NCBI GenBank assembly: GCA_029856525.1
Contig: JAHQXC010000049.1
Span: 1-10,150 of the forward strand
Length of the DNA stretch: 10,150 bases
DNA from: Candidatus Odinarchaeia archaeon
Lineage (GTDB): Archaea > Asgardarchaeota > Odinarchaeia > Odinarchaeales > Odinarchaeaceae
Direction of reading: 5' to 3'
Shown: positions 432 through 8,927 of the stretch, one piece after another
Layout of the letters: each line of letters begins with the position of its first letter
How positions within the stretch are numbered: the first letter of the stretch is position 1
The notes under the pieces: model-generated
Databases searched by the model: none
What the model saw: the letters and a program-made list of their open reading frames with translations, nothing else
What the model was told of the DNA's origin: nothing
Translations under genes and position numbers: made by a program

Positions 432-1316
432 TTAACGCGGATTTCTTAGCTCAGCTATTTTTTTAACGAATTCATTAAATTTTCCATGGTTTTCAGTTAT
501 AGGATTACTGAAGATAACCTGTTTCACCCCTATTTTTTCTAATTCGAAAACTCGATTTTCAAAATCTTCCATTGAACCGGCTAAACCGAAGTTCTCTTCT
601 AGAAACCCTCTCATATTTTTTAATTCAGTAATGTTATGGTTTAAAAAATATTTTCGAACCTGTTGAAGCTGCCTGTCTACTCCTAGTTCTAAAGCTATTT
701 TCTCAGGTAGCTCTGAGGCTATGAACGCGCATGTGATTAAAAATTTATTTAACAGTGTTTTATCCGGCAGGTAAGCGCTTGGTCCTATAGCGAGGATATT
801 ACTGTTTTTCAACCCTGTTTTATCTATTACTGTTTTAATAATTCTAGGGGATATTGAATTAATTATTACTCCGTCGAATTTGTCGCCTAATTTAATTAGG
901 GTTTTAAATCCGATGGCGCCTAAGTAGATCGGTAGATCTAATTGGAAATCAGTATACGTGTGTAAATACTCTTCTAATAATGGAATGGTTTTAAAAATAT
1001 TTTTACCGATTATTTTCAGATGCTTTTCACCACCTCTCCCTAATCCTATTATAAACCTGTCTCCGAACGCTTCTTTTAAAAGTTTAAAGGCTTGAAAAAG
1101 CTGCAGCGGCTTATGCATGTGCACGGATAATATAGAGGTGCCTATGATTATGCTTTTAGTTTTAGAAGCGACTGTTCCGAGCACAGGGTATATGTGTCTA
1201 TGCTCAGGGCCTTCACCTAACCATATAGCGTCTAGACCGGTTTTCTCTATTATTCTACTTTTTTTAATCAATGCGTGAATATCATACATTCCATCTATAT
1301 GTAATCCTATTTTCAA
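432..1316 (-). CDS. LLM (luciferase-like) family, Mer-like putative F420-dependent oxidoreductase, paralog B (divergent, 294 aa)
   Basis: TIM-barrel LLM pattern: MKIGL start, GLDAIWLGE, I-IGTSILS, GDRFIIGLGRG, LPIYLGAIG, DGVIIN, and a C-terminal G-x-E...LEKIGVKQVIF-NP matching the Mer-type GVTQ-V-GSP end. TTG start lies 1 nt after the stop of the upstream paralog (TGA-A-TTG). Confidence 0.85.
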   Translation of the reverse strand: MKIGLHIDGMYDIHALIKKSRIIEKTGLDAIWLGEGPEHRHIYPVLGTVASKTKSIIIGTSILSVHMHKPLQLFQAFKLLKEAFGDRFIIGLGRGGEKHLKIIGKNIFKTIPLLEEYLHTYTDFQLDLPIYLGAIGFKTLIKLGDKFDGVIINSISPRIIKTVIDKTGLKNSNILAIGPSAYLPDKTLLNKFLITCAFIASELPEKIALELGVDRQLQQVRKYFLNHNITELKNMRGFLEENFGLAGSMEDFENRVFELEKIGVKQVIFSNPITENHGKFNEFVKKIAELRNPR

Positions 1317-1317
1317 T

Positions 1318-2316
1318 TCACTTTCTCCATATTTTTTCAGAGCTCATGGTTTTAATTGTTTTAAGCGGATTAGAGCTGAAGGGTGGTCCTACTATGATTT
1401 CGTCGACACCCAGATTTTTTATTTCAATAAATTGCTGTTTTAGTTCTTCAACGCCTCCGAATAAACAGAATTCGCGTAGAATATCCTCTGTAATATAATC
1501 CATAGCTTGAGATTTATTCCCTTTCAAAAATTCTTTTTTAATTTGGTTTAATAGATCGGTGTCAAGTTTTAACTGAGCTAACAGGGAATCACTCATACTG
1601 TTTATTATTGTTAAAACAACGGATTTAGCTAGTTTTAAGTCTTCAACATTATTTGATAGAATGAATCCGTTCCATAATATTTTTCTAATGTCGTCTGGGT
1701 TGCGGTGAGCGTTAACCGCGGCTTTTTTAACTATTTTCAGAGATTCGCCGAGTAAACTTAGAGGAGCGCTGAATATAACTCCGTCTGCCAGCCTCCCAGC
1801 TAACTCTAGAAGCTTAGGTCCTCGCACACCTAGATAAACTGGTATATTGTATTTTGTAAATGAAAGCTTGTAGGCTACTATTTTTTCATCCCCGTATTCG
1901 AAATTAACTGTCTCCTTGTTAAATATTTTTTTTAATATAGTAATCGTGTCTTGAAGACGGGGGACGACTTTTTTAGGCTTAACTCCTGTTAACCGTTCGA
2001 CTTCAAGACTCCCTCCGACCCCTAGGCCGAGTATAAAATTATTGAAGGTTAATTCGGCTAGTGTGGCGGTTGCTGAGGCTATGGTTGAAATCGGATAAAC
2101 ATAAGGGCTTATAACCCCTAAACCTATTCTAATATTCTTAACATGGTTGGCGATTATAGAAGTATACGTGAACGCCTCGTAGCTGAGTATATCGTCACCT
2201 ATCCATACAGTCTTATAATTGTTTTTGGAAGCTGTTATAGATAGTTTTAAAGCTGTGTGAATAGGGGTGCCTGTGGTTACACCTAGGGATAAGTCGGGGA
2301 TTGTATTCTGCTTCAT
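1318..2316 (-). CDS. LLM family, Mer-like putative F420-dependent oxidoreductase, paralog A (332 aa)
   Basis: Motifs VWIGDD, IRIGLGVISPY, TIASATATLAEL, FILGLGVG, IPVYLGVRGPKLLELAGRLADGVI and LGVDEIIVGPP follow the methylene-H4MPT reductase (Mer) fold along the whole length. The His of the canonical Mer W-I-T-D-H motif is absent, so the mer symbol is not assigned. Confidence 0.88.
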   Translation of the reverse strand: MKQNTIPDLSLGVTTGTPIHTALKLSITASKNNYKTVWIGDDILSYEAFTYTSIIANHVKNIRIGLGVISPYVYPISTIASATATLAELTFNNFILGLGVGGSLEVERLTGVKPKKVVPRLQDTITILKKIFNKETVNFEYGDEKIVAYKLSFTKYNIPVYLGVRGPKLLELAGRLADGVIFSAPLSLLGESLKIVKKAAVNAHRNPDDIRKILWNGFILSNNVEDLKLAKSVVLTIINSMSDSLLAQLKLDTDLLNQIKKEFLKGNKSQAMDYITEDILREFCLFGGVEELKQQFIEIKNLGVDEIIVGPPFSSNPLKTIKTMSSEKIWRK

Positions 2317-2323
2317 TGAGATA

Positions 2324-3103
2324 TTAATTATTAACTTGCGGTTGATAAAATTTTTCGGTTAAAGTTTTCTGGACGACCCCTGTTTTACTGAGGGCGGCGA
2401 TAATAAACGCGGCGAATAAAGCTTGAGCGGCGCGGATTAGAATATATATGTACGGGTAGAGTAAAAAGTAGAATCTCACGGTTTCAACAGACATACCGAA
2501 TATTCCATTATAAATCAGCGGGTATGAAAATATAACTGTGCCTAGGAGATTATCTAAAATATTTCCCACAAGAGCGATGAGAAAGATTATAAGAAAACTG
2601 TATTTAACTGGTCTAGTGGTCTGAGATTGTCTAATTTTTTTAAAATAATAGATTGCAGGATAAAATAATAGTAAACCTAGAATTTTATCATATAACACCG
2701 CTACTGTTTCAAGCCAGTATACAGTGGGAGGCCATAAAGGCGGGGAGATTAACTGTAGGATTATTAGAATGATATAGATGGCTGTGACTGATGTTAACGC
2801 TACTCTATGTTTCTTATAGAAGATTACTCCTGTGAAAAAAGCGTTTACAGCCGGATTGAATAAGAAGGGTAAGCCGAATAAACCTGAACCTAAAATAAAC
2901 CATGATATAGTGGAACCTAATAGTGCTGTTATAAAACCTATGAACGGTCCGAGTAGAAAACCGATTACCACTGCAAAGCCTGCTTCGAATTGGATTTCAA
3001 CTCCAGCCGCTACAGGTATACCTGGGAGTATTGAGAGCACGACGTATAATGATGCGGTTAAAGCGATTAAAACCACTTTATATGTGGAATTGTTTTCTTT
3101 CAT
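2324..3103 (-). CDS. ECF transporter substrate-binding S-component (archaeal long form); substrate unknown
   Basis: Highly hydrophobic 259-aa protein. It has an N-terminal AxxxA-like helix (IALTASLYVVLS) and the typical S-component signature VIGFLLGPFIGFITALLG. About 8 hydrophobic segments by eye. ATG at 3103; stop is 7 nt before the LLM-A start. Confidence 0.8.
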   Translation of the reverse strand: MKENNSTYKVVLIALTASLYVVLSILPGIPVAAGVEIQFEAGFAVVIGFLLGPFIGFITALLGSTISWFILGSGLFGLPFLFNPAVNAFFTGVIFYKKHRVALTSVTAIYIILIILQLISPPLWPPTVYWLETVAVLYDKILGLLLFYPAIYYFKKIRQSQTTRPVKYSFLIIFLIALVGNILDNLLGTVIFSYPLIYNGIFGMSVETVRFYFLLYPYIYILIRAAQALFAAFIIAALSKTGVVQKTLTEKFYQPQVNN

Positions 3104-3113
3104 ATGTAAAACC

Positions 3114-3151
3114 TGTGTAAATTAATACATTGCAATGTATTTTATTACACA
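3114..3151. promoter_or_regulatory. 38-bp inverted repeat, candidate transcription-factor operator
   Basis: TGTGTAA-att-AATACATTG|CAATGTATT-tta-TTACACA. It has a perfect 18-bp core (3124-3141) plus 7-bp outer arms symmetric about the same centre (3132/3133). It lies in the 99-bp intergenic region between divergent genes, one of which encodes a wHTH protein. Confidence 0.8.
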
Positions 3152-3173
3152 AGAGAGATATAAATATTTCCCG
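3151..3173. promoter_or_regulatory. Archaeal BRE/TATA promoter core, apparently usable in both directions
   Basis: Plus strand: purine-rich AAGAGAGA followed by TATAAATA (3159-3166). Minus strand: CGGGAAATA followed by TTTATATC (3164-3157). SD-like AGGTGA/AGGTGG at 3187-3198 precedes the ATG at 3203. Confidence 0.55.
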
Positions 3174-3202
3174 AAACAATAATTACAGGTGAAGGTGGAA
3201 AC

Positions 3203-3676
3203 ATGAATGAAAACGAAGTCTGGCCTTATGTGTTAATACTACCAGGATCTAAAAGCGAGCTTAAAAAAGTGTTTAACACATTATTCAAATCGAATATCCC
3301 GCTGGAAATAGTGGGATTATTCAAAGACTGTGAGAAAATCTACCAATCAGATATTATTAAAAAATTTAAAAACCATTCTAATAAGTCTATACTAAACTAT
3401 CTTAAACAGTTAGTTGACACTAAAATCTTAGAGACTGGGATAGAAAAAATTAAGAAAGAGCAGAGAAGTTTCTGGACTAAATGGTATAAACTCACCAGTA
3501 TAGGCCGCTATATATTATCAATATTCAATCCTGAAATAAACGAAGAGCAGATAAAAAACTTGATTAAAGAATTATTTTCAATATACGTGACGAAAGTAAT
3601 AAAAATAGCAGGCAATTATGGCATTAACCCATCTGAATTAAACATGCTCTTCCAAAAAGCATTAGGGGGAGCTTAA
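3203..3676 (+). CDS. Winged helix-turn-helix transcriptional regulator (ArsR/HxlR/MarR-like fold)
   Basis: 157 aa with wHTH pattern: IYQSDII...SNKSILNYLKQLVDTKILE (recognition helix and beta strand), a wing ending in KWYKLTSIGR (Y-x-LT-x-x-G), then a C-terminal helical extension. Good SD upstream. Confidence 0.85.
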   Translation: MNENEVWPYVLILPGSKSELKKVFNTLFKSNIPLEIVGLFKDCEKIYQSDIIKKFKNHSNKSILNYLKQLVDTKILETGIEKIKKEQRSFWTKWYKLTSIGRYILSIFNPEINEEQIKNLIKELFSIYVTKVIKIAGNYGINPSELNMLFQKALGGA

Positions 3677-3690
3677 GCAAGGTGTTTATT

Positions 3691-4074
3691 ATGATACTAG
3701 AAGATGAGGCTAAAAAATTCTTTCCATCTTATATAACACACCGTGATAGAGCATTATTCGAGGCGGGGGTTAAAATCGGCGCAATCTACCACCAGTTTAT
3801 AGGAACCCCTATCCCAAAAGAGGAGAGAGGCGTGAAACTATTGGAGGCAGCGATAGAGGAGAGTGTGAAAACACAGCCTTGGGTTAAAGATGTTAAAATC
3901 AATATAAAACCGAGCGGAAAAAAGAGCATATACGGTTACGATGAAATCTCTAAAATTAATTTCACTGTTTCGCTGACTATAAAATATGGTAATGCAGAAG
4001 TTGAAGCCGGCCTGGAATATAATAGAGAGCTAGAGTATCCCTTATTTTATATAAAAAAAATTCAAATATTTTAA
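3691..4074 (+). CDS. mptD: Archaeal 7,8-dihydroneopterin aldolase (MptD / MJ0408 / DUF381 family)
   Basis: Family motifs RALFEAGVKIGAIYHQFIGTP, LEAAIEESVKTQPWV and terminal LEYPLFYI. The ATG at 3691 is preferred over the track's GTG at 3682, because that GTG is part of the SD AAGGTG (3679-3684), 6 nt upstream of the ATG. Confidence 0.9.
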   Translation: MILEDEAKKFFPSYITHRDRALFEAGVKIGAIYHQFIGTPIPKEERGVKLLEAAIEESVKTQPWVKDVKINIKPSGKKSIYGYDEISKINFTVSLTIKYGNAEVEAGLEYNRELEYPLFYIKKIQIF

Positions 4075-4077
4075 AAA

Positions 4078-4902
4078 TTATTTAGGTTTTTCTAAAAGTT
4101 TTATTTTACTGAGAATTCTACCATCAGCAGCGTGAGGAGCTCTTACTAATATATCAGAGCTTTTCAACATATCTCTTAACTCATCCACTAGTTTAGCAGC
4201 CGCGGATAATATTTCATGAGCTGCAGCTGCTAGAATCGTATATTGCTCCCAGTTCTGGATTTTAAAACAGGCTTCATGATCTATTTTACCGACTAACTCC
4301 GCCATTTTAAAAGCGGCTAGCGCTCTCGCATTAGCGTAGCTGTTGTTAAAAGGCGGTTTTTCCAGTAGAAACGATGAGTCTACTATAATAGAAGGGAGAT
4401 CTATTATACCTTTCTCAAGTTTTTCAATCACTTCATCAACGATTTTAACGATTGAACTCATCACACCTGTACCAGCTAACACCTTTATTATATCAGAGTT
4501 GAAAACAGCCATTTCTGTAGGATCTAGAAACTCGCGTCTGGCGCCTATCATCGGATCAGCTGTGATAATAATGTAACCTACCTTCTTATTTTTCAGCTCT
4601 GAAGCTATTTTCAAAGAAGAAGAATCGCTTATAACAATTAAAGGTATACCTGTTTCTCTAAGAGTTTCGATAACATTAATGCATTGCGGTAAACTAGCGT
4701 TAGGAGTTATTAGAATAGTTAAATCATGCTTCCATTTAACTAAATCATTGACACTTGCCTCCAAACTTTCACCAGTCATTTTAGAACCTGAACCGAAAAC
4801 TCGGAATTCAACATTAACCCGTTCAGCTCTCTCATCGAATAAAAATTCGAATAACGGGGACATGCCGATGTTACCGATTTTTAAAACCGCTATTTTAATC
4901 AT
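4078..4902 (-). CDS. mtd: F420-dependent methylene-tetrahydromethanopterin dehydrogenase
   Basis: Diagnostic motifs KIGNIG, DERAER, FRVFGSGSKM, PN, DPMIGARREFLDPTEMAVFNSDIIKVLAGTG, AAAHE and RAPHAADG-ILSK; length 274 aa is typical. Confidence 0.96.
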   Translation of the reverse strand: MIKIAVLKIGNIGMSPLFEFLFDERAERVNVEFRVFGSGSKMTGESLEASVNDLVKWKHDLTILITPNASLPQCINVIETLRETGIPLIVISDSSSLKIASELKNKKVGYIIITADPMIGARREFLDPTEMAVFNSDIIKVLAGTGVMSSIVKIVDEVIEKLEKGIIDLPSIIVDSSFLLEKPPFNNSYANARALAAFKMAELVGKIDHEACFKIQNWEQYTILAAAAHEILSAAAKLVDELRDMLKSSDILVRAPHAADGRILSKIKLLEKPK

Positions 4903-5921: not shown

Positions 5922-6638
5922 TTACACGTACATGCCTCTATTCCCCTCTGTATCCCTGACTTCCTGCTGCTCTATAACCTCTTTCAATTCGCGCTCAATA
6001 GTCTCAGCGTCGCTTAACAGCTGTTCAGTGTTAATATTCAAGTTACATATCCGGTTAATCACGTTAATCGCGTTTGAAGCAGCACGTGGGTCAGGTCTAC
6101 CCTGCTCAGCGTAGGGTAGCAATGCTATCCCAGGGAAGTTATGAATTTCAAAATACATTAACATGAGCGCTAAAGGTCCTGTTACGAAAAGTCCCTTCTC
6201 CAATATCTGAACACCTATATCCTGGTCTAACTTATAGTTTTTAGTGTGAATACAGCGCACTATATCGTCGCCTTCCTGCTGGAATCTATTATCTAGCCCT
6301 CCTACTAAAATCGCTTGTTTAAAACCCGATGAAATAACCCATTCTGAAACCACTCTGCTGAACTCCTTCTGCTCTAATCGATGAGGTTGAAACCTGCACA
6401 TTAACAGAACTATATTTTTATACTCGTAGAATTCGAAGGGGAAAACTAAACGGCCTTCATCCATTCCTACAAACGAAGGGTTTAAATCAGAGTCAATATA
6501 TCCTATGTAGCTGGCGCCTAATGTTTCAACAATATGCCTTGTCGTAATATAGCCTGTTACACCTATACCGTGAAACCCCGTGATGAACGTGTACCCATCA
6601 TATTTTTTCTGTGATTTAATATTTATAGAAACAGTCAC
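5922..6638 (-). CDS. PAC2-family proteasome assembly chaperone/activator (PbaA/PbaB-like)
   Basis: Motifs ITGFHGIGVTGYI, PFEFY, LVGG, GPLALML and PDPRAAS, a C-terminal helical region, and a terminal HbYX motif (M-Y-V-stop). GTG start with GGGGTGG upstream. Confidence 0.9.
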   Translation of the reverse strand: MTVSINIKSQKKYDGYTFITGFHGIGVTGYITTRHIVETLGASYIGYIDSDLNPSFVGMDEGRLVFPFEFYEYKNIVLLMCRFQPHRLEQKEFSRVVSEWVISSGFKQAILVGGLDNRFQQEGDDIVRCIHTKNYKLDQDIGVQILEKGLFVTGPLALMLMYFEIHNFPGIALLPYAEQGRPDPRAASNAINVINRICNLNINTEQLLSDAETIERELKEVIEQQEVRDTEGNRGMYV

Positions 6639-6752
6639 TAAACCACCCCGAAAACAAAAAGATTAAAATATTTTTACTCCTTTATTTTTGTAAAGTTCAA
6701 AAAAGAAATTACTGATAATTAATATAAGAGTTTCTATTTATGGTGCGGTGTG

Positions 6753-8015
6753 ATGGGTAAAATTACATGTCTTGGTGGTTGTCAAGAGGTAGGCGGCTCA
6801 GGTTTCCTGGTGAGCGCGAATAATAGAAACATTCTACTAGATTATGGAATATACCTTAGAAGAAAGAATCCTTTCCCGATAACGGTAGCTCCAAGGGACA
6901 TCGACGCTATTTTCCTCACTCATGCGCATCTAGATCACTCTGGAGCGCTACCGTTAATGTATATTACCGGTAACCCGCCTATTTACGCGACTAAGATTAC
7001 CATGGAGGTTCTAAGAGTACTACTTGAAGATTATCTTAAAATCTCTGAGGCTATTCTACCCTTCGATGAAGGCGAGATAGCTAGTATCCGTGAAAATTTT
7101 GTTAAAACATCTTACGGAGATATTATTAACGTTGGCGAAGATTTTAATGTTACTATAATAGACGCTGGGCATATTCCAGGAAGTTATATGGCCTTAATAG
7201 AAGTGAATGGTAAAAGAATCCTCTACACAGGGGATATTAACCTCAGAGATACTCTATTAGTTAAAGGGGCTAAACCTGATCTGCCTGAAATAGACTATTT
7301 AATAATGGAGAGCACATATGCTTTAACCAACCACCCGCCTCGAGAGGAATTAGAGAGAGATTTTATCAACGCTGTTAACGAGGTTGTTGAGAAAGGGGGT
7401 GTTGTATTAATACCAGCCTTCGCTTTAAGCCGCAGCCAGGAAGTTTTATGTATACTTGAAAAATATAATTTTGAAAACCAGGTTATATTAGATGGGATGG
7501 CTAGAGATATTAGTAGAATATTTTTAAGGCACCCGAAATATTTTAGAGACTTCAAATTATTAAAAGACGCGCACAGCGGCATTGAATATATTGAAAGACG
7601 TAAAACCAGAGAGATCGCTATTAAAAACAGCGGTGTTATTATCGCCCCTGCAGGTATGTTAAGCGGCGGAGCTGCATTATATTATGCTAGACAGTTAGCT
7701 GACGATGAGCGGCATGGAATATTTATTGTAGGTTATCAGCTACCGGGGACGCCTGGTAGAGTTTTACTTGAAACCGGGAAGCTGCCTGTTAACGGCGGGT
7801 TATTAGATGTTCAAGCTCAAGTGAAATACTTCGACTTCTCAGCGCATGCTGGTAGACAGGAGCTTATGGAATTTATTAAAAGCATACGCGGGAGCCCTAC
7901 CATTATACCGATCCACGGGGAACCTGAGTCCTGTAAATATTTAGCTGAGTACGCCTCTAAGGAACTAGGGTTGAATACTCTTCTACCGGCTGCCGGGGAT
8001 GTTATTGAAATATAA
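6753..8015 (+). CDS. Metallo-beta-lactamase/beta-CASP ribonuclease without KH domains (aCPSF2/aCPSF1b-like)
   Basis: LGGCQEVGGS, LLDYG, THAHLDHSGA (HxHxDH), AGHIPGS, YTGD, MESTY, PAFALSRSQE, GYQLPGTPG, FSAHAG and IHGE give the full MBL plus beta-CASP A/B/C motif set. At about 420 aa it lacks the N-terminal KH domains of aCPSF1. The start is ATG 6753 or the adjacent GTG 6750. Confidence 0.9.
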   Translation: MGKITCLGGCQEVGGSGFLVSANNRNILLDYGIYLRRKNPFPITVAPRDIDAIFLTHAHLDHSGALPLMYITGNPPIYATKITMEVLRVLLEDYLKISEAILPFDEGEIASIRENFVKTSYGDIINVGEDFNVTIIDAGHIPGSYMALIEVNGKRILYTGDINLRDTLLVKGAKPDLPEIDYLIMESTYALTNHPPREELERDFINAVNEVVEKGGVVLIPAFALSRSQEVLCILEKYNFENQVILDGMARDISRIFLRHPKYFRDFKLLKDAHSGIEYIERRKTREIAIKNSGVIIAPAGMLSGGAALYYARQLADDERHGIFIVGYQLPGTPGRVLLETGKLPVNGGLLDVQAQVKYFDFSAHAGRQELMEFIKSIRGSPTIIPIHGEPESCKYLAEYASKELGLNTLLPAAGDVIEI

Positions 8016-8057: not shown

Positions 8058-8927
8058 ATGGGGCTTGAAAAAATCTCGAAAATAGACCAGTATATTCTAT
8101 TTCTAACCTTTCCGTTAATAACAATTCTAGTCTCATCCTTATGGTCCGCTCTCCTAATACCAGCTGATACTACTTATTTAACTGATTTAATACCTGAAGC
8201 GAGGGGAGGGATCACGGTAAGTTTAATCTATGCTTCAATCTTCATCTTCATCGCGTTAATCTCAGGATTTTTAATATATTATTTGATATTGAAAGATAGA
8301 AAAACGATTCTAAAATATTTTTTAGGTTTTTCCATTTCATTTGTAATAATCGTGATACTCCCAGTGTACTCCTCGCTTATACTCGAATACTTGAATTTAG
8401 ATGCTTTCACAGCTATTAGCTTATTCACGTTTTCAATAATAGCGGGTGTTATAATCGGATATATTTCAGCTTACACTGTCTTAAACGATAAAGCAAGTCA
8501 AATGCTTAGAAATATTTTCTTAGTGTTGTATAGCTCGCTTGTAAGCTCTTTCCTAGCTCTGGTTACACCGACTTTAATTCTAATATTTGTATTCATAGGA
8601 TTATCGTTATATGACATCTACTCTGTGATGAAGGGGCCTATAAGGAAAACGCTTCAAATATCTGAGAGCAAAGGGTTAAGTATTAAACTGTATGTGAGTT
8701 TTGGTTCATGGGATATTGGAGTAGGGGATTTAGTGTTCTATTCTATTTTAGTGGCACACGCTCTTCTATTCTATGGGTTAATAATATGGATTGCTTCTAT
8801 AATAGCTCTCACCGTAGGATTACTGTTCACATACCTGGTTTTAACTAGAAGAGAAGTTATTCCAGGCCTACCGATCGCTCTCCTTATAGGTATGATACCT
8901 TTAATAGCCGCTTTACTAATTTTTTAG
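8058..8927 (+). CDS. Presenilin-family (A22, GxGD-type) intramembrane aspartyl protease
   Basis: About 9 hydrophobic segments. Catalytic YD (LSLYDIYSV), GxGD (IGVGDLVFYSILV) and a PAL-like motif (PGLP) occur in the canonical order. Confidence 0.92.
   Translation: MGLEKISKIDQYILFLTFPLITILVSSLWSALLIPADTTYLTDLIPEARGGITVSLIYASIFIFIALISGFLIYYLILKDRKTILKYFLGFSISFVIIVILPVYSSLILEYLNLDAFTAISLFTFSIIAGVIIGYISAYTVLNDKASQMLRNIFLVLYSSLVSSFLALVTPTLILIFVFIGLSLYDIYSVMKGPIRKTLQISESKGLSIKLYVSFGSWDIGVGDLVFYSILVAHALLFYGLIIWIASIIALTVGLLFTYLVLTRREVIPGLPIALLIGMIPLIAALLIF

Follow-up and report, generated by a model that had tools for sequence, protein, structure and literature searches.

A conserved double TGTA-N6-TACA box as a putative local repressor operator between an ECF-S-like transporter gene and a winged-helix gene of an Odinarchaeia-type archaeon

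The stretch of DNA analysed here (positions 1 to 10,150 of contig JAHQXC010000049.1, forward strand, assembly GCA_029856525.1 of Candidatus Odinarchaeia archaeon; 10,150 nucleotides, hereafter the window) carries two exact copies of the dyad TGTA-N6-TACA that together form a 34-bp element (3116-3149). This element lies in a 99-bp intergenic gap (3104-3202) between two divergent transcription units, one beginning with the gene of a membrane transporter resembling the S component of energy-coupling factor importers (ECF-S-like; 2324-3103, minus strand) and the other with an unannotated open reading frame (ORF) of 157 aa (3203-3676, plus strand) predicted to encode a stand-alone winged helix-turn-helix (wHTH) protein. 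The same double box was found at 13 loci of four lineages, where it is placed between a TATA-like octamer and the start codon of the ECF-S homolog. We consider it fairly probable that two dimers of the wHTH protein bind over the predicted start of the transporter transcript and repress the operon formed by the ECF-S gene and the two luciferase-like oxidoreductase (LLM) genes that follow it.

Box 1, the transporter-proximal dyad TGTAAATTAATACA (3116-3129), and box 2, the TATA-proximal dyad TGTATTTTATTACA (3136-3149), both match TGTA-N6-TACA exactly and are joined by the 6-bp linker TTGCAA (3130-3135), with dyad centres 20 bp apart and half-site centres 10 bp apart. Two copies of the dyad were observed in the window as compared to 0.13 expected, and none of 200 dinucleotide shuffles contained two or more. 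The initial annotation had described the boxes as part of a phased array of five TGTA/TACA tetramers, with a palindromic linker and a 38-bp inverted repeat. All the tetramers that it listed are present (TGTA starting at 3105, 3116 and 3136, TACA starting at 3126, 3146 and 3184), and so is the inverted repeat (3114-3132/3133-3151, 19 + 19 nt, 84% complementary), which is however mostly a by-product of two adjacent dyads sharing half-sites. The two dyads proved to be conserved, whereas conservation was lacking for the outer tetramers (TGTA at 3105 and TACA at 3184) and for the palindromic character of the linker. Since these parts are unconserved, what remains of the array of five, as judged from the alignments, is a pair of dyad boxes at a distance of 20 bp.

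Within the genus, a footprint of three genomes whose regulator proteins are 77-87% identical left box 1 invariant at 14 of 14 positions, box 2 at 12 of 14 and an AT-rich element (3159-3168) at 10 of 10, the corresponding values being 7 of 34 for the remaining spacer (3169-3202) and 14 of 31 for the adjacent ECF-S codons. Phylogenetic footprinting at orthologous loci, which the initial annotation had proposed as a check, was then extended to 13 loci, four in g1, two in the sister family g2, four in g7 and its relatives and three in a metagenome lineage, these last three having been retrieved with the pattern itself and counting for gene association and not for the motif. The double box was conserved, with 6-bp spacers and a 6-bp linker in the exact 20-bp register at all 13 loci. 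In the alignment, 16 of 34 columns are invariant, namely 14 tetramer positions and an AA in the proximal spacer. Both tetramers of box 1, together with two A's of its spacer, are unchanged throughout, and the tetramers of box 2 are unchanged at 11 of the 13 loci, both g2 loci carrying one degenerate base (TGTT in the transporter-sense alignment) and with it a slightly degenerate form of the double box. The linker is always 6 bp long and free in sequence (TTGCGA, TTGCAG, ATGCTA, TAGTAA and others), and the remaining spacer positions vary freely as well. In g7, which is a different family, four genomes have the double box, and in one of them a third, partial box follows at a further 20 bp. It should be noted that the proteins of the four lineages are just 33-42% identical, with the register and position of the boxes unchanged. 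Given tetramers that are conserved at a fixed distance from each other and spacers that are free, the boxes appear to behave as a protein-binding operator. In their build they agree with archaeal palindromic repressor operators of the YtrA/MDR1/Phr type, being symmetric about a dyad, with conserved half-sites some 10 bp from each other around a free, AT-rich centre.

That the element should be a chance AT-rich palindrome devoid of function is scarcely credible. Single TGTA-N6-TACA sites are indeed as common genome-wide as control palindromes, but such an origin is at odds with the result of the shuffles, with a register and position that are equal in four lineages of such diverged proteins, and with a double box that is unique in each genome and has 0 control matches in relatives. 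The diverged flanks and coding sequences further argue against recent horizontal copies of one segment.

Regarding a wider distribution of the motif, counts were made in the 1.32-Mb metagenome-assembled genome (G000) with the reversed pattern as control. Single exact boxes were found 10 times compared to 11 for the control, that is, without enrichment, and sites with at most one mismatch were no commoner than four composition-matched palindromes, whether in intergenic regions or overall. The double box with up to three mismatches gave 9 sites per strand compared to 5 for the control, and the operator was the only site at 0-1 mismatches. This double box is unique in six genomes (G000, G004, G005, G006, G013 and G002); in five relatives the best match always fell at the orthologous locus, and the reversed control gave 0 matches. 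The genome scan revealed no site upstream of other mpt/mch/ftr/mer-type genes. The sole other intergenic box of this genome, before a radical-SAM gene (C24:6493), was rejected as unconserved in three relatives, and near-matches on contigs C56 and C73 were rejected as located inside ORFs. The initial annotation had recommended the motif for mapping a regulon and a scan for its enrichment upstream of pathway genes; neither use is sustained by these counts. The motif marks one promoter per genome, as a local operator with no wider regulon, and TGTA-N6-TACA should not be used for inferring a C1-pathway regulon, a point that matters for annotation.

In the metagenome pattern scan, 7 of the 57 matches had an ECF-S and/or wHTH gene alongside. 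The pattern also matched the metagenome contigs L094, L098, L101, L102, L103, L110, L120, L121, L128 and L146, two of which are labelled human gut; many contigs carry a near-identical array of 20-bp direct repeats (TGTACAAATTTACAGTGAGG and variants), and others have similar iteron-like TGTA...TTACA tandem repeats. Since none of these contigs has the Asgard genes, both kinds of repeat are regarded as unrelated to the operator.

The position of the boxes relative to the transporter gene is as constant as their register. In the transporter sense, the order is a TATA-like octamer (TTTATATC/A/G, TTATAAAT or TTTAAAAT), 7-18 bp, the distal box, the 6-bp linker, the proximal box, a gap of 11-21 nt that frequently contains a ribosome-binding site of the GGTGA type, and the start codon of ECF-S, and an ECF-S homolog is found directly downstream of the boxes in every lineage. 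In the window, a putative promoter element shared by both units (3157-3166, AT-rich and TATA-like) can be read in both directions, as TTTATATC toward the transporter (minus strand, 3164 to 3157) and as TATAAATA toward the regulator (plus strand, 3159-3166), the minus-strand octamer lying 7 bp upstream of box 2. With the TATA at this distance, the transporter transcript is expected to start in or next to the linker: an archaeal start some 26 bp from the TATA centre would fall at about 3134, placing box 2 at roughly -15 to -2, between TATA and start, and box 1 at roughly +6 to +19, within the first 20 transcribed bases. The boxes had been proposed to cover the start site of the ECF-S transcript as a repressor site, and their location across the predicted start, with a conserved TATA upstream, agrees with this proposal, the geometry fitting repression of the ECF-S/LLM unit. 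In g7, the boxes and the TATA stay beside the ECF-S gene when the regulator gene starts about 250-400 bp off, which indicates that the constant geometry is that relative to the transporter promoter. The intergenic region of g1 and g2 is short enough for the AT-rich element to be readable as a plus-strand TATA as well (3159-3166, some 35 nt ahead of the regulator ATG), and the element could constitute a bidirectional promoter core.

The position over a predicted transcript start also bears on the RNA-hairpin alternative that the initial annotation had raised against an operator, according to which the inverted repeat, transcribed as part of the 5' leader of the transporter mRNA, would attenuate transcription, affect message stability or form a riboswitch-like structure. 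The minus-strand intergenic RNA does fold into a 16-pair hairpin of -19 kcal/mol (z = -3.07 versus shuffles). However, we hold such a function to be very unlikely, as covariation in nine orthologous loci was under the shuffled mean (0.047 versus 0.078) and the proportion of paired cells likewise (66.7% versus 70.5%), pairing being limited to the invariant tetramers and the spacers being almost never complementary. In the same-genus comparison, the spacer of box 2 showed substitutions of T by G, A and C, none of which was compensated in box 1. Furthermore, the predicted start lies inside the element, so that only half of the hairpin would be transcribed, and a search of Rfam gave no match (noise only, E-value 0.6).

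The 157-aa product of 3203-3676, which the initial annotation had put forward as the protein most likely to bind the boxes, did not match any Pfam or NCBIfam model at threshold, those of the MarR and PadR families included; individual members of its family gave sub-threshold matches to HTH_27, HTH_5, HTH_24 and PadR. An AlphaFold2 model was built on a 26-sequence homolog alignment (pLDDT 83), a single-sequence model (pLDDT 51) having been discarded. It shows helices at residues 32-41, 48-54 and 60-72, strands at 76-85 and 88-97 that form a long beta-hairpin wing, and three C-terminal helices, that is, the three-helix bundle with recognition helix and following beta-hairpin wing of a winged-helix fold. 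The family profile matched AdcR (4.8e-5), 2p4w, deposited as an ArsR-family regulator (1.2e-4), and several PadR proteins in the PDB, the top matches being nearly all wHTH proteins, and the best Foldseek matches were mostly MarR-family regulators, with TFIIE-type winged helices also high (TM about 0.35-0.45). Taken together, the model and these matches support the assignment of the 3203-3676 product as a winged-helix protein. Every member of the family has S59-N60-K61 where the recognition helix begins, a constancy that parallels that of the TGTA half-site. At all 13 double-box loci, the boxes have the wHTH gene as their divergent neighbour, and this gene is, with the transporter gene downstream, the sole constant companion of the boxes.

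In Asgard genomes outside this genus, nearly all homologs found belong to longer proteins (about 440-480 aa), in which the N-terminal 150 aa correspond to the wHTH protein and the remainder is a PfkB/ribokinase-like kinase. Such wHTH-PfkB fusions are annotated just as carbohydrate kinase (for instance L028:3-2369 of genome G123 and L015:460-2300). The wHTH(-PfkB) and ECF-S-like genes were divergently adjacent in every examined locus, and match coordinates place them side by side on opposite strands in most Asgard genomes in which both genes were found. In genome G003, an ORF with a Cas12f1-like TNB (TnpB-type) domain (L015:90-434) replaces the ECF-S gene upstream of wHTH-PfkB and the boxes are missing, which probably marks a mobile-element insertion or a rearrangement. 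A literature search returned nothing on the motif string, on MptD with PfkB or on an Asgard PfkB with a winged helix.

The metagenome lineage (L119, L137 and L141) keeps the double box and the ECF-S-like gene together with a stand-alone wHTH protein of 159 aa (33-35% identity; L119:1795-2274, minus strand), with neither PfkB nor mptD nearby, and its protein appears to be a second, independent stand-alone form. In L119, a nucleotidyltransferase (Polbeta/NTP_transf_2) gene adjoins the wHTH gene. Contig C113 of genome G000 (764-1657, minus strand) encodes a PfkB kinase without a fused domain, whose identity to the kinase domains of the fusions is about 30%; at this low identity it is not clearly the detached partner of the 157-aa protein and may be an ordinary ribokinase paralog.

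Downstream of the regulator gene in the window lies mptD, encoding an archaeal dihydroneopterin aldolase (3682-4074, plus strand; Pfam DHNA PF04038, 1.5e-32), followed by the methanopterin-pathway gene mtd (4078-4902). Linkage of mptD to the wHTH gene is found in several Asgard families and is missing from the box-bearing metagenome lineage. One complete genome shows the gene order mptD, wHTH-PfkB, MptE-like gene, and this location of the fusion suggests a role of its kinase in the pterin branch of the synthesis of methanopterin or folate. The linkage to mptD and mptE and to Mer-like reductases, together with the small-molecule kinase fused in relatives, points to a pterin or a methanopterin-related compound as the putative ligand of the regulator.

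The proposed target, the ECF-S-like gene, was recognised by the Pfam model ECF-ribofla_trS (35.9 bits, cut-off 26.7); the NCBIfam folate-family S component model scored under its cut-off on this product. The two genes that follow it on the minus strand (1318-2316 and 432-1316) code for luciferase-like (Mer-like, F420-type) oxidoreductases matched by Pfam Bac_luciferase, the NCBIfam Mer models scoring under their cut-offs. The gaps separating the three genes are 7 and 1 nt and the order ECF-S then LLM is also found in three relatives; the LLM genes are probably co-transcribed with the transporter gene. EcfT-like genes are present elsewhere in the genome, which would make a shared energising module available to the S component.

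Under the reading that we favour, each dyad would be occupied by one dimer of the 3203-3676 protein, and the 10-bp half-site and 20-bp dyad spacings would put both dimers, perhaps cooperatively bound, on roughly one face of the DNA. The bound regulator would leave TBP and TFB free access to the TATA while blocking the recruitment of RNA polymerase, and would on that account act as a repressor. Archaeal repressors commonly act from such a position, hindering polymerase recruitment while TBP/TFB stay in place. In g1, where the plus-strand TATA of the regulator-mptD unit closely follows the boxes, some autoregulation is also possible.

A related element was observed in Thorarchaeia-type genomes, between the ECF-S-like gene and wHTH-PfkB: a 19-bp palindrome, TGTAGTTyAsTAAACTACA, followed after 10 bp by TGTACA, about 20-75 bp upstream of the ECF-S-like start (L035-L041 and L068-L085). 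Its half-sites are identical to those of the double box, whereas its spacing differs (TGTA-N11-TACA). Searched with one strict pattern, the exact palindrome was single-copy in four of five genomes. In three of these genomes the single match coincided with the ECF-S/wHTH-PfkB locus, and in G392 it preceded an ECF-S-like gene alone; in G352 two exact matches were found, both elsewhere.

Several observations weigh against repression of the transporter by the adjacent protein. The start site is placed from the predicted TATA, and the histogram of TATA-to-ATG distances in this genome is flat, with no sharp profile that would calibrate the leader length. The three pattern-retrieved metagenome loci, as said, add nothing to the count for the motif. 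The location of the boxes in g1 and g2 would equally suit an upstream activator site of the plus-strand unit. Finally, the Thorarchaeia-type genus g83 (two closely related genomes, G391 and G392, 92% and 96% complete) has a related TGTAGT-N7-ACTACA palindrome before its ECF-S-like gene and no wHTH homolog was found there with protein and profile queries, the positive controls of which matched; another factor could read sites of this type, and the exception could reflect either an assembly gap or a different reader. In these two genomes (L071 and L074), the sequence TGTAGTCAGCCAAACTACA lies 68 bp upstream of the ECF-S-like start, and the next gene on the upstream side codes for a DUF92 membrane protein.

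The placement in g1 and g2 leads to an explanation in which the boxes serve mainly as an upstream activating or autoregulatory site of the regulator-mptD unit and recruit TFB/TBP to the TATA at 3159-3166. Box 2 of g1 ends 9 bp upstream of this TATA, and predicted RbkR sites lying just upstream of promoter elements have been read as activator sites (PMC5397151). By contrast, the g7 boxes are about 250-400 bp away from the regulator gene and retain their place between TATA and ECF-S start, mptD is missing in the metagenome lineage, and the only constant geometry is that toward ECF-S, which together make a principal role on the plus strand improbable.

The g83 genomes bear on another explanation, in which the operator is genuine but read by a transcription factor encoded elsewhere, the adjacent wHTH protein having another role, for example as a former N-domain of the kinase. 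Such a factor would account for the palindrome of g83, and likewise for families f15, f16 and f19, which have mptD followed by wHTH-PfkB and in which no TGTA-N6-TACA was found upstream of these operons. No ECF-S was found in these three families either, and the joint absence of transporter and boxes is a negative correlate that favours repression of the transporter by the wHTH protein. A separate reader must further be reconciled with a wHTH gene that is the divergent neighbour at 13 of 13 double-box loci, in one lineage even after loss of the linkage to PfkB, mptD and LLM, and with the SNK of the recognition helix, invariant in step with the TGTA half-sites. We regard it as unlikely, if slightly less so than a principal activator role.

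Compared to characterised systems, the proposed regulator and its site most resemble, in their layout, YtrA of Sulfolobus acidocaldarius, which binds a 14-bp semi-palindrome with an AT-rich centre located downstream of BRE/TATA (BRE, TFB-recognition element) and covering the start site (PMC6746942). YtrA controls a very small regulon of membrane-protein genes and has been proposed to repress by steric hindrance of RNA polymerase recruitment (PMC6746942). The likeness lies in the proposed wHTH dimer, the 14-bp core with conserved outer half-sites, the predicted placement of the site, the membrane-protein targets and the very small regulon. By contrast, YtrA is a GntR-family regulator, and the protein of the window matches no Pfam family at threshold; the single core of YtrA flanked by half-sites differs from the two full dyads 20 bp apart found here, and the half-site sequences are unlike. 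It should also be noted that binding has been shown for YtrA and that the sites described here are known from sequence.

RbkR, the archaeal riboflavin kinase/regulator, has operators that in several classes consist of two adjacent palindromes, taken as the sites of two cooperating dimers (PMC5397151). The wHTH of most Asgard relatives is likewise fused to a small-molecule kinase and encoded next to genes for the synthesis and transport of cofactors, among them that of an ECF S component. However, the RbkR kinase is a CTP-dependent riboflavin kinase, whereas the orthologs in other Asgard families carry a PfkB/ribokinase-like domain, which is not of the RbkR kinase fold family, and the 157-aa protein has no kinase domain. 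RbkR sites lie upstream of promoters and are read as activator sites, unlike the boxes, which lie downstream of the TATA, and the RbkR motif (TTACT...AGTAA) is unrelated to TGTA-N6-TACA.

MarR/PadR/ArsR-type repressors (AdcR 3tgn, MepR, 2p4w) share with the modelled protein the helix-turn-helix, the beta-hairpin wing and helical dimerisation elements and give its best profile and Foldseek matches. These matches are nevertheless weak (profile E-value 5e-5 at best, TM about 0.35-0.45), and neither the three-helix C-terminal extension nor the kinase fusion of the relatives is typical of these families. Palindromic sites in divergent promoter regions are common among such repressors. Dyads of the TGT.../...ACA form are also found in the TRP boxes of TrpY (TGTACA, Methanothermobacter), several of which occur in a divergent archaeal promoter region, and in the sites of the bacterial TyrR (TGTAAA-N6-TTTACA) and CRP (TGTGA-N6-TCACA). 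The spacings, half-site lengths and regulator families are unlike those considered here, and the similarity to these three is a resemblance only.

The host is an Asgard archaeon of Odinarchaeia type and not a methanogen. A same-genus relative was deposited as 'Candidatus Odinarchaeota archaeon J65_bin.29', homologs of the genes carry Thor-, Hod-, Odin- and Promethearchaeota names, and the genome has some methanopterin-pathway genes, namely mtd, mptD and an MptE-like gene. An ORF of 97 aa with a GTG start (2832-3125, plus strand), antisense to the ECF-S gene and reaching into box 1, is most likely spurious; it had made a crude coding mask label box 1 as coding. Further along the window, a PAC2 proteasome-assembly-chaperone-like protein (5922-6638, minus strand), a beta-CASP/metallo-beta-lactamase ribonuclease that aligns solely to residues 176-628 of the aCPSF1 model, without the N-terminal part (6750-8015, plus strand), and a presenilin-like membrane protease (8058-8927, plus strand) are encoded.

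In kind, the double box would be an ordinary local repressor operator, and its interest lies in a clean regulator/operator pair and in an uncharacterised wHTH(-PfkB) family. The operator is compact and delimited (34 bp, four tetramers) and the candidate regulator small, which makes the pair directly testable. Since the gene company relates the switch to the supply of pterin/methanopterin, the compound sensed by the regulator would also tell what the orphan transporter imports. We tentatively suggest, as a possibility that goes well beyond repression as such, that the boxes are the cis-element of an uncharacterised, largely Asgard-specific family of bifunctional wHTH-PfkB kinase/repressors that would sense a pterin or a methanopterin-pathway intermediate and shut an ECF-type salvage importer and Mer-like reductases at cofactor sufficiency, with a logic like that of RbkR built from unrelated domains, and of which the DNA-binding module alone would have been kept in Odinarchaeia and in one metagenome lineage. 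To our knowledge, almost nothing is known experimentally of gene-specific transcription control in Asgard archaea. If the proposal is true, the pair would be among the first experimentally tractable operator/regulator pairs defined for these archaea, and cofactor scavenging would be a regulated trait in them.

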